Under the pieces are notes generated by a model that was not told the origin of the DNA, searched no databases, and saw nothing but the letters and a program-made list of their open reading frames with translations. Both the position numbers and the translations under genes were made by a program. Of a stretch of 64,000 nt of DNA, positions 49,540 through 57,136 are shown in pieces. Within the stretch, counting starts at the first letter, position 1; each line of letters opens with the position of its first letter. The stretch spans positions 15,823 through 79,822 of the forward strand of contig DATIUW010000166.1 of the NCBI GenBank assembly GCA_035466435.1. Reading direction: 5' to 3'. The stretch comes from Polyangiales bacterium (lineage in GTDB: Bacteria > Myxococcota_A > Polyangia > Polyangiales > Houyiibacteriaceae).

Positions 49540-51681
49540 GTGACCCTCATGCGTGACGCCTCGTTTCAGGAGCCGGGAATGCTCGACGAGCGCATCGCTC
49601 GCTTCGTTCCTCCCGGCGTCGATCCAGCCACTCTCCCCCGCTCCTTCGCGTTGATCGAGCCGCTCGTTGCACGGGCCCCCATTCCACCCGAGTGGCAGGT
49701 CGTCCCCGTTTTCCGGGGCGGTCCGGATGTCTGCACGGCCACGATCTCCGTCGATGAGGGCACGAGCTTCTATGGCACCGGCGAGGTGGCTGGACCGCTC
49801 TTGCGCAACGGGTTCGTCACCGAGGTCTGGGCAAAGCAGCCTTTCCGGATCGAAGCGGACGGCACACCGGTACAGAACTACGACGCGCGTTCGAAGAGCT
49901 TGTATCAGGCGCATCCTTGGGTCTTGGGGGTCCGTTCGGATGGGACTGCTTTCGGTGTGCTCGCCGATACGACATACCGGATCCAAATCGATTTGAGCGA
50001 TGGAATACGGCTGCGCTGCCCCAAGCCCTTTCCCATCATCGTGATCGAAGGCGAGTCTCCGCAGGACGTCGCAACGAAGCTCGGCGCCCTCACCGGCCGG
50101 ATCGAGCTCCCTCCGCGCTGGACCCTCGGCTATCATCAGTGCCGGTTCTCGTACCATCCGGATGCTCGTGTTCGCGAGTTGGCGCGCGAGTTTCGCGCCC
50201 GACGGATTCCGTGTGACGTCATCTGGATCGACATCCACTACATGGATGAGTACAAGGTCTTCACCTTCGATCCGGAGGGCTTCCCCGACCCCAAGGGCAC
50301 CAACGACTACCTGCACGAGCTGGGCTTCAAGTCGGTTTGGATTCTCGATCCCGCGGTGAAGGCCGAACCGGGATACACGGTCTACGATGAGGGCGTCGCC
50401 GGAGGACACTTCGTGTGCGACGCCGAAGGCAACGAATACCATGCCTGGACGTGGACGGGGGACGCCGCCTTTCCCGACTACACGCGGCCCGAGACTCGAG
50501 CTTGGTGGAAGCGCCTCACCGCCGAGATCTTGGAAACGGGTATGGACGGCCTATGGGTCGACCTCAACGAGCCCTCCCCGATCCTGCCCCTCGGCGCCGA
50601 GCTGCCCGAGGACCTTCGCCATCTCGGCGGAGACGACATCGAGCCGGGCACCCACGCCCGATACCACAACGTCTACGGGATGTTGATGGCCAAAGCTACG
50701 AACGAAGCCATGCGGACGGCACGCCCTCGACGGCGTCCGTTCGTCCTCACCCGGTCGAGCTACTTGGGCGGGCAGCGCTGGGCGGCGACGTGGACGGGCG
50801 ACAACGTCTCGAGCTGGCAGCACCTGCACTGGTCGGTCCCGATGGTGCTGAGCCTGGGCTTGTCGGCCCAGCCCGTGAGCGGTCCCGACATCGGCGGCTT
50901 CACGGGCACCCCCTCTCCGGAGCTCTTTGCGCACTGGATTGGCGTCGGCGCGTTGCTTCCATTCTGTCGAACGCACAACTCCTTGACGGGTGATCAGGAG
51001 CCTTGGTCTTTCGGGCCGGAGGTCGAGGAGGCCTCCAAGATCGCGCTGGCCAGGCGCTATCGCCTGCTCCCGTACCTCTACACGCTCTTTCACGAAGCCG
51101 CCGTCATGGGGCTTCCCATTGCACGCCCCCTCTTCTACGCGGACCCCAAAGACCCTTCCCTGCGCGGAGAGGACCATGCATTCCTGCTCGGGTCCGACGT
51201 GATGGTGCAGCCTCGACTGCTCGAGCGCGGCACACACGACTTTCCCATGCCGAGCGGGCACTGGCGATCCTTTTCCCTGGTTGGGGAGGATTCCGAACGC
51301 GAGAGCGCACAGCCCGTGCTGCGTCTGCGACCGGGTGCGATCGTGCCCCTCGGGCCTGGCGGCCAAAGCGCGGAGGAGGCTTTCGCGGGTCCGTGGACCT
51401 TGCTGATTTCTCTCGACGAGTCCGGACGCGCGTCGGGGCAGCTCTACGAAGACGCAGGGGACGGCCTCGAATACCGGGATGGTGATTACCTACTCACCAC
51501 CTACGAGGCCGAGTTGCACCAGGACGTCCTCGAGGTGCGCATTGCAGACCAAGAAGGGGCGCGAATGCGTCCGTCGAGGACCCTCGACGTGGAGGTTCTG
51601 ACCGATCACGGCGTGCTCCGTGGGCGGGGCCGCGACGGCGAAACCGTGGTCCTGCCCGTCGAGCCGACCGCTCAGTGTTGA
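49540..51681 (+). CDS. Glycoside hydrolase family 31 (alpha-glucosidase-like)
   Basis: GH31 blocks: CDVIWIDIHYMDEYKVFTFD (nucleophile region), DGLWVDLNEP, RWAATWTGDN and FCRTHN. The 3' end overlaps the sucrose synthase 3' end by 10 nt. Confidence 0.85.
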   Translation: MTLMRDASFQEPGMLDERIARFVPPGVDPATLPRSFALIEPLVARAPIPPEWQVVPVFRGGPDVCTATISVDEGTSFYGTGEVAGPLLRNGFVTEVWAKQPFRIEADGTPVQNYDARSKSLYQAHPWVLGVRSDGTAFGVLADTTYRIQIDLSDGIRLRCPKPFPIIVIEGESPQDVATKLGALTGRIELPPRWTLGYHQCRFSYHPDARVRELAREFRARRIPCDVIWIDIHYMDEYKVFTFDPEGFPDPKGTNDYLHELGFKSVWILDPAVKAEPGYTVYDEGVAGGHFVCDAEGNEYHAWTWTGDAAFPDYTRPETRAWWKRLTAEILETGMDGLWVDLNEPSPILPLGAELPEDLRHLGGDDIEPGTHARYHNVYGMLMAKATNEAMRTARPRRRPFVLTRSSYLGGQRWAATWTGDNVSSWQHLHWSVPMVLSLGLSAQPVSGPDIGGFTGTPSPELFAHWIGVGALLPFCRTHNSLTGDQEPWSFGPEVEEASKIALARRYRLLPYLYTLFHEAAVMGLPIARPLFYADPKDPSLRGEDHAFLLGSDVMVQPRLLERGTHDFPMPSGHWRSFSLVGEDSERESAQPVLRLRPGAIVPLGPGGQSAEEAFAGPWTLLISLDESGRASGQLYEDAGDGLEYRDGDYLLTTYEAELHQDVLEVRIADQEGARMRPSRTLDVEVLTDHGVLRGRGRDGETVVLPVEPTAQC

Positions 51682-57000: not shown

Positions 57001-57136
57001 CGAGCGGATTGGAGCCGAACCCTCGCAAATGCCATGCGACGTTGAATGGAGCCCCGCCCAACACGCGGCTCCCATCGGGAAAATGATCGAACAAGACCTC
57101 CCCGAATATGACAGGTCGTTTGTGAAATCGGTGCAC
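54065..57136 (-). CDS. Three-domain fusion: PfkB fructokinase-like + sucrose-phosphate synthase (GT4) + sucrose-phosphate phosphatase-like HAD domain
   Basis: aa 1-320 are PfkB kinase (VIFGEVLFD..., [16 protein letters not shown]). aa 321-765 are SPS-like ([59 protein letters not shown]). aa 766-1023 are SPP-like with intact HAD motifs ([21 protein letters not shown]). GTG start at 57136. Confidence 0.85.
   Translation of the reverse strand: [1023 protein letters not shown]

Follow-up and report, generated by a model that had tools for sequence, protein, structure and literature searches.

The window analysed here, a stretch of 64,000 nucleotides from contig DATIUW010000166.1 of an uncultured Polyangiales bacterium, a myxobacterium of soil or sediment (assembly GCA_035466435.1), contains two adjacent open reading frames (ORFs) on the minus strand whose products appear to belong to sucrose metabolism. 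The first of these (54065..57136, minus strand) starts with GTG and codes for a protein of 1023 amino acids in which a PfkB-type kinase, a GT4-type sucrose-phosphate synthase (SPS) and a HAD-IIB domain resembling sucrose-phosphate phosphatase (SPP) are joined. This fusion gene is designated frk::sps::spp-like, and its product is deposited at NCBI as HSN82981.1 of a Polyangiales bacterium under the annotation 'PfkB family carbohydrate kinase'. The second ORF (51672..54068, minus strand) starts with ATG and codes for a sucrose synthase (SuS) of 798 amino acids (sus; HSN82980.1). The stop codon of the fusion gene and the start codon of sus overlap in the tetranucleotide ATGA (54065..54068, minus strand), as read from the sequence with the codons checked. 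A preliminary description made from the DNA letters alone had proposed a three-domain ORF, its overlap with a bona fide SuS gene and a host that is not phototrophic, and all three points are confirmed by domain-wise searches with hidden Markov models (HMMs), by the sequence and the matches of the SuS protein described below, and by the NCBI protein match that identifies the source of HSN82981.1 as a Polyangiales metagenome-assembled genome (MAG).

Domains were assigned with the HMMs of Pfam and NCBIfam, the scores being compared with the curated cutoffs, and conservation was judged from an alignment of 15 diverse fusion sequences (A1). The N-terminal, fructokinase-like PfkB domain comprises residues 8-300 (56237..57115, minus strand), as indicated by PF00294 (118 bits against a threshold of 25.8, residues 21-288), by its motifs and by its closest match in the PDB, 2QHP, a protein named fructokinase (E 1e-26). 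D17, the sequence GGAPFN (27-32), an NxxE motif with N179 and E182 and the sequence DTVGAGDAF with D250 are all present, and most of them are invariant in A1. From general knowledge of PfkB enzymes, we take the Asp and GG residues to bind the sugar and assign the usual roles to the NxxE motif and to the GAGD anion hole with its catalytic Asp. A kinase activity of this domain is well supported, as far as sequence features can predict it.

The central GT4 domain (residues 318-752; 54881..56185, minus strand) is recognized by the model of the SPS glycosyltransferase domain, TIGR02472, with 670 bits (cutoff 576) over exactly these residues, and can be aligned with the SPS of H. orenii (2R60). The key residues, consisting of GGQ (343-345), H462, K468, R570, R574, K575 and the E-x7-E pair E665/E673, are invariant in A1, and H151, R270/K275 and K157 of the H. 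orenii enzyme are among the aligned counterparts of these catalytic, substrate-binding and phosphate-binding residues. The equivalent histidine and the first glutamate are essential in the SPS of Thermosynechococcus (PMC7264703), and the predicted SPS activity is likewise well supported. The C-terminal SPP-like domain (residues 775-1011; 54104..54814, minus strand) scores 230 bits with PF05116 and 277 bits with TIGR02471 (cutoff 210, residues 775-1011) and aligns with the Synechocystis SPP (1S2O), while it stays below the cutoff of the equivalog model for stand-alone SPP, TIGR01485 (127 bits against 184).

The three domains are connected by two variable linkers. Linker 1 (residues 301-317; 56186..56236, minus strand) represents the junction created by the fusion, as the stop codon of frk and the start codon of sps fall at this position in split relatives. 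It shows a mean pairwise identity of 28% and AlphaFold2 confidence values (predicted local distance difference test, pLDDT) below 50 at residues 305-315. Linker 2 (residues 753-774; 54815..54880, minus strand) has a mean pairwise identity of 29% and pLDDT values below 50 at residues 758-772, compared with mean identities of 55-69% within the domains. The AlphaFold2 model calculated from A1 contains three well-folded domains with a mean pLDDT of 81 and a predicted template modelling score (pTM) of 0.48. Because of the poorly conserved, low-confidence linkers and this pTM value, the modelled protein looks like a set of domains tethered to each other and not like a rigid assembly or a tunnel, and any channeling of intermediates would stem from proximity and the 1:1 stoichiometry of the activities.

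The downstream gene is, as judged from its sequence, a complete and bona fide sucrose synthase. It scores 1126 bits with TIGR02470 (cutoff 810), contains the SUS_N and SUS_EPBD domains and matches the SuS of Nitrosomonas europaea (4RBN) over its full length (965 bits, residues 5-792), no difference between the two proteins being noted at the level tested. A four-nucleotide overlap of sps and sus, either as ATGA or as GTGA, recurs in different phyla, in 22 of the 38 related loci compared, and because of this recurrence the coupling is to be regarded as ancestral to the operon and not as a peculiarity of the fusion.

Distribution and origin of the fusion

A search of 5.8 billion proteins, with NCBI, ENA, JGI and Logan assemblies among the sources, yielded more than 110 clusters (formed at 90% identity) that show the full-length three-domain architecture; their lengths are 1010-1091 amino acids and their identities 58-100%. 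The named clusters come from Polyangiales, Myxococcales, Myxococcota, Longimicrobiales and Gemmatimonadota. Clustering at 50% identity leaves a single full-length fused representative, and at the sequence level the fused proteins are one tight family with at least about 55% identity. Reviews of the field list two arrangements of SPS, namely the glycosyltransferase domain alone (GTD) and its combination with a phosphohydrolase domain (GTD-PHD; PMC4390843; PMC9971976), and no description of a kinase-GTD-PHD (PfkB-SPS) fusion was found in open-access papers and preprints. The novelty previously assumed for the triple fusion seems to hold for the printed record, but not for the databases, in which the architecture is common, extends over three phyla and is annotated either as 'PfkB family carbohydrate kinase' or as 'sucrose-phosphate synthase'. 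The fusion seems to be undescribed in print, yet it is abundant and annotated, consists entirely of known modules and appears to be one mutational step away from a widespread operon.

This last point follows from a survey of 80 loci, taken from one genome per GTDB species and identified below by L numbers, in which the ORFs were scored against the domains of the window protein. Fusions in a single ORF are confined to Myxococcota, Longimicrobiales (L010, L012), one member of the Gemmatimonadaceae (L022) and one Vicinamibacterales MAG (L016), and the frame is intact over approximately 1020 amino acids in loci L001-L013, L022 and L081-L084. Separate genes in the order frk, sps-spp-like and usually sus are found in Gammaproteobacteria (Thiohalomonadaceae, Chromatiales, Thiotrichales), in the cultured Nitrosomonas halophila Nm1 (L019), in Planctomycetota, in Verrucomicrobiota and Pontiella, in a Desulfobacteraceae MAG and in several Gemmatimonadota, so that the gene order of the split forms is identical to the domain order of the fusion in at least five phyla. 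The stop codon of frk and the start codon of sps in these split forms often overlap by 4-11 nucleotides or lie a few bases apart, and because the two genes overlap or nearly adjoin in this way, a change of one base would suffice to fuse them.

In a neighbor-joining tree of the SPS-SPP part, which is midpoint-rooted, rough and carries no support values, all fused forms make up one clade nested among the split forms of Gemmatimonadota. Because the fused clade is nested among relatives that keep the same order in separate genes, one minor event within an operon of wide distribution, namely a single fusion of adjacent genes, is the parsimonious reading of these sequences. The stop codon of frk may have been lost at a pre-existing overlap of a few bases in the ancestor of one clade associated with Gemmatimonadota and Myxococcota.

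The closest known counterparts are the proteobacterial clusters of frk, sps(-spp-like) and sus, represented by L019, by the loci from Thiohalomonadaceae and Chromatiales and by a report on Methylohalobius crimeensis. They contain the same modules in the same order, and their sps and sus genes are often coupled by a four-nucleotide overlap as in the window. They differ from it in that frk is a gene of its own with a stop codon, followed by an overlap or by a gap that may reach about 100 nucleotides, and in that their SPS-linked phosphatase domain possesses the lysine of HAD motif III (RASKG); unlike most relatives of the window, they have no stand-alone S6PP-family gene nearby. The previous statement that the kinase is encoded separately in proteobacterial clusters is therefore correct, as seen in the split loci and in the literature (PMC4463540). 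A more distant comparison is possible with Synechococcus PCC 7002 and halotolerant methanotrophs, whose sps-spp-frk-ams clusters likewise contain a fructokinase gene that is co-transcribed with the genes of sucrose synthesis to recycle the fructose released by sucrose breakdown (PMC11046441). Unlike in the window, breakdown is catalyzed by an amylosucrase instead of a sucrose synthase in these organisms, and all genes are separate.

A restriction of SuS to a few lineages outside cyanobacteria and plants, as assumed initially, does not agree with the survey, since SuS genes adjoin sps in several further phyla, comprising Myxococcota, Gemmatimonadota, Acidobacteriota, Gamma- and Betaproteobacteria, Verrucomicrobiota/Kiritimatiellota and Phycisphaerae. 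Operons of the frk-sps-sus type and SuS itself have a far wider distribution in non-phototrophic bacteria than the older literature would suggest, and the lineages concerned include Myxococcota, Gemmatimonadota, Acidobacteriota, Planctomycetota, Verrucomicrobiota and Proteobacteria. The fusion may moreover be regarded as a natural "Rosetta stone", in which a fructokinase is physically tied to SPS, and supports the view that sucrose metabolism in bacteria includes the recycling of fructose as an integral component. The understanding of this metabolism in principle is left unchanged by these findings.

Further domain combinations exist in public data, such as a protein of 998 amino acids with the order SPP, SPS and SPP-like domain (P0124) and two proteins of 718-743 amino acids with an N-terminal SPP followed by SPS (P0205, P0218). 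Domain shuffling in the sucrose pathway is not limited to the GTD and GTD-PHD forms covered by the reviews.

The phosphatase-like domain

Residues D781, D783 and T785 of motif I, T813 of motif II, and D958 and D962 of motif IV of the fused domain correspond to D9, D11, T13, T41, D186 and D190 of Synechocystis SPP (1S2O). They are invariant in A1, and the characteristic strings DVDDT and GDSGND are both present. The preliminary description had considered the catalytic motifs of this domain as intact, which holds for motifs I, II and IV (DxDxT, Thr and GDSGND), but not for motif III, as the lysine of this motif (K163 of Synechocystis SPP) is replaced by Pro935 (codon 54332..54334, minus strand; codon checked) in an ungapped alignment of RSNKG with RASPG. 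Across the 120 fusion clusters, this position is occupied by proline in 92, cysteine in 12, serine and leucine in six each and alanine in one, with three clusters remaining unmatched and none containing lysine.

Three arginines are candidate stand-ins for the lost lysine, as judged from their positions and conservation. R932 corresponds to R160 of Synechocystis SPP and is located three residues ahead of the lysine position. R853 (54578-54580) and R891 (54464-54466) belong to the cap region and are fixed in the lysine-less fusion clade, in which they were gained. The position of R853 is taken by Q79 in Synechocystis SPP and by no fixed basic residue in the lysine-containing relatives, and that of R891 by a conserved serine (S118). 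The divergence of the phosphatase-like domain relative to the SPS domain of the same protein amounts to 1.16 in the fusions, compared with 1.13 in lysine-containing relatives and 1.27 in proteins with degenerate motifs I and IV.

Two types of cyanobacterial SPS provide the frame for interpreting these features. The bifunctional SPS of Synechococcus elongatus PCC 7942 (GTD-PHD, with both domains active) resembles the window protein in its C-terminal SPP-type HAD domain with the aspartates of motif I, and lacks the kinase domain; the E-x7-E pair and the aspartate of motif I are needed for its two respective steps (PMC9971976). The SPS of Synechocystis PCC 6803 consists of a GTD and an inactive PHD and is accompanied by a separate SPP (1S2O), and thus shares a non-canonical PHD with the window clade and the separate S6PP-family gene with most of its relatives. 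According to the reviews, this PHD is inactive and has lost its nucleophile (PMC4390843; PMC9971976). The Nostocales-type inactive PHD present in our data set reads EIDNT...ASGND and also lacks the nucleophilic aspartate. In contrast to the Synechocystis and Nostocales domains, from which the nucleophile and one aspartate of motif IV have disappeared, the window clade retains these residues and is devoid of the lysine.

A separate gene coding for about 267 amino acids is located divergently from the operon in nearly all relatives from Myxococcota and Gemmatimonadota and in many loci of Planctomycetota and Verrucomicrobiota. Its product scores 185 bits with PF05116, has each of the four HAD motifs with the lysine in place (DLDGT / TGR / ..AKD / DSGND) and may be the real SPP. 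Note that the stand-alone proteins carry glycine at position 4 of motif I (DLDGT), a mark of cyanobacterial 'SPP-like' proteins whose substrate is unknown (PMC9971976), and score below the NCBIfam cutoffs for SPP. In the window, the slot of this gene (57311-58135, plus strand) is taken by a DsbA-like gene, and no stand-alone S6PP homologue was detected within the 64 kb, the sole match being the fused domain itself. The closest relatives of the window protein (L081, L082 and L083, 84-90% identity) also have no adjacent stand-alone S6PP gene: L083 contains the same DsbA-like gene between polA and the fusion gene, and L081 and L082 contain nothing there. The stand-alone protein of L001 belongs to a large family, and none of its best 120 matches is traceable to SG8_38, the source of L081, or to the contig of the window. 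No compensating change in the active site was found in the sub-lineage without the neighbouring gene, which differs by six conservative substitutions off the known active-site positions.

The balance between a fused domain that still hydrolyses sucrose-6-phosphate by a non-canonical site and one that has become inactive is nearly even, with a slight leaning toward retained activity. This leaning is based on the invariant acidic residues, on a constraint as in lysine-containing relatives, on the gain of R853 and R891 and on the existence of a sub-lineage without the neighbouring S6PP gene. A large, lysine-less clade that keeps all acidic residues and usually resides beside a complete homologue represents a natural experiment on the role of SPS-linked SPP-like domains.

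Proposed role of the operon

The two genes are best interpreted as an operon for the synthesis and re-mobilisation of sucrose, which would be derived by gene fusion from the widespread operon of frk, sps(-spp-like) and sus; a probability of roughly 0.6 is assigned to this reading of the sequence data. In the proposed scheme, the SPS domain would form sucrose-6-phosphate from a nucleoside diphosphate glucose (NDP-glucose) and fructose-6-phosphate, which would then be hydrolysed to sucrose, the enzyme being the fused domain or else a different HAD phosphatase; this second step is the least secure one. SuS would reversibly cleave the stored sucrose to NDP-glucose and fructose, and the kinase domain would convert the latter back to fructose-6-phosphate, to be used in glycolysis or by the attached SPS domain. 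Sucrose would probably serve as a compatible solute or as a transient carbon store. In most relatives, the fused phosphatase would be backed up by the stand-alone S6PP-family enzyme encoded next door, which is missing in the window. The scheme is in line with the literature on the split clusters, to which sucrose synthesis as well as degradation and reutilization by SPS, SuS and fructokinase have been attributed (PMC4463540; PMC9971976). It also takes the place of the compact sucrose cycle envisaged in the preliminary description, which would literally amount to a futile cycle burning ATP, synthesis followed by re-mobilisation being the more conventional reading.

Several observations weigh against this interpretation. 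The equivalog model for enterobacterial fructokinase, NF006957, assigns only 67 bits to the kinase domain against a cutoff of 450, and because of this large distance the specificity for fructose is inferred from the gene context together with the match of the 2QHP type. The lysine of motif III, which stabilises the phospho-aspartyl intermediate in SPP (PMC9971976), is absent and its position is variable, as expected after a loss of function. A relative-rate test revealed no relaxed constraint on the phosphatase-like domain, but is of low power, as degenerate domains are constrained too. Furthermore, the neighbouring S6PP gene occurs in 27 of 34 loci with non-lysine domains and in one of 32 loci with lysine-containing domains, counted over loci whose upstream sequence spans at least 1.2 kb (Fisher p = 5e-11), a value that overstates the association because all non-lysine sequences belong to one superclade of the neighbor-joining tree, in which the loss of the lysine and the appearance of the neighbour may represent only one to three independent events. 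Finally, all activities operating at once would constitute an ATP-consuming futile cycle, and because of this a regulation at the enzyme level that is not visible in the sequence has to be assumed.

The most serious alternative concerns the second step and is considered somewhat less probable than the proposed scheme. It regards the SPP-like domain as dead or nearly so and as a module for binding or handing off sucrose-6-phosphate or for scaffolding, and the fusion protein as a bifunctional kinase and SPS which releases this intermediate to a separate HAD phosphatase, provided by the stand-alone S6PP-family gene in most relatives and encoded elsewhere in the organism of the window. The ungapped alignment of K163 with Pro935, the complete lack of lysine in the fusion clusters in favour of P, C, S, L or A, and the strong co-occurrence of a complete, lysine-bearing PF05116 neighbour with the non-lysine domains all agree with such a loss, as does the protein P0124, in which an SPS already carrying a C-terminal SPP-like domain has acquired a second SPP at its N-terminus. 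A precedent is given by the inactive PHDs and the idea of channeling that has been proposed for the SPS of Synechocystis and plants (PMC9971976; PMC4390843), including a hand-off of sucrose-6-phosphate in Synechocystis-type enzymes (PMC4390843; PMC9971976). However, the known inactive PHDs are devoid of the nucleophilic aspartate (E...A in Nostocales), whereas all acidic residues are invariant here, and the constraint on the domain equals that of the lysine-containing relatives. The sub-lineage of the window does without an adjacent stand-alone gene, none being present in the 64 kb, and the stand-alone proteins of the other relatives contain DLDGT like the 'SPP-like' proteins of unknown substrate and fall below the NCBIfam SPP cutoffs. 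The association itself may reflect only one to three events, as one superclade holds all non-lysine sequences.

At the opposite end, the fusion protein might be a trifunctional enzyme converting fructose, ATP and NDP-glucose to free sucrose, with the missing charge supplied by R932 or by R853 and R891 and with fructose-6-phosphate and sucrose-6-phosphate handed over between the tethered domains. This possibility appears rather doubtful on present sequence evidence, and the self-sufficient polypeptide suggested in the preliminary description is not assured, since the lysine of motif III is missing. If true, it would offer a compact part for engineering the production of sucrose from fructose.

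An unlikely alternative is a nucleotide-sugar shuttle feeding glycogen synthesis, in which SPS would use, for instance, UDP-glucose, SuS would regenerate, for instance, ADP-glucose from the sucrose, and the fructose would be recycled by the kinase, which in sum amounts to a conversion of UDP-glucose to ADP-glucose at the expense of one ATP. The genes appear co-transcribed and are translationally coupled, so that the enzymes would be made together, SuS has been discussed for cyanobacteria as contributing both to the pool of ADP-glucose and to the synthesis of polysaccharides (PMC4390843), and the conserved GH31 neighbour described below hints at a link to alpha-glucans. Yet the immediate neighbourhood contains no glycogen genes, and the split clusters of halophilic and halotolerant bacteria have been interpreted in terms of osmoadaptation (PMC4463540).

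That a frameshift or an assembly error has merged distinct frk and sps genes can practically be dismissed, even though split versions occur in close relatives (e.g., in the Gemmatimonadota loci L018, L020 and L023-25), the long-read MAG of L017 shows obvious frameshift noise and the SG8_38 orthologue is annotated by NCBI with just 704 amino acids, because the frame of about 1020 amino acids recurs intact across independent assemblies, in more than 110 clusters and many loci, and the locus of SG8_38 itself holds the full ORF.

Two of these entries deserve a comment of their own. The orthologue from SG8_38 (P0077; L081, 3044-6115 of LJTN01000062.1, Myxococcales bacterium) was called by NCBI as a 'HAD family hydrolase' without a kinase domain. 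The existence of a kinase-less homologue was rejected in this case, as a full ORF of 1023 amino acids with a GTG start extends in frame upstream of the mis-called start. In L017 (9114-11704), from a Gemmatimonadaceae long-read MAG, sus is fragmented, with four or five ORFs that overlap one another, and frk and sps appear as split genes inside the otherwise fused clade, which is probably due to homopolymer or frameshift noise of the long-read assembly.

Neighbouring genes

The operon is bordered upstream by a divergent intergenic region (57137..57310, no strand assigned), which is presumed from its position alone to contain the promoter. A scan of positions 51300-57500 for sigma-70 consensus sequences found no promoter, and terminator-like sites occurred at chance level in the consensus scan of the same segment. 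The DsbA/thioredoxin-like gene beyond this region (57311..58135, plus strand; Pfam DSBA, E 6e-26) is located between polA and the fusion gene, shows a weak match to the Rcas_1661 thioredoxin-like lipoprotein family and probably does not belong to the sucrose system. In more distant Myxococcota, ffh, polA and the S6PP gene are arranged on one side, divergently from the fusion gene and sus, beyond which a convergent GH31 gene and maoC are located.

Such a GH31 gene is also present in the window, where it codes for an alpha-glucosidase-like protein of 713 amino acids (49540..51681, plus strand; PF01055, 384 bits; MalA-like, 350 bits, under the cutoff). It is convergent with sus, and the 3' ends of the two genes share 10 bp (51672-51681). 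A GH31 neighbour at the 3' side of sus is retained with 65-74% identity in L001, L004, L005, L007, L011, L013, L081, L082 and L083, and the conserved gene may be an accessory gene or functional partner of the sucrose operon within the same carbohydrate module. A recent horizontal acquisition of the locus, as visible in base composition, was rejected, as its GC content of 0.61-0.63 throughout equals that of the whole window. Still further away, an ORF of 487 amino acids (45673..47136, plus strand) combines a HAD-like hydrolase (residues 20-158) with a UbiA prenyltransferase (residues 224-460) and represents a second fusion of two enzymes in the window.

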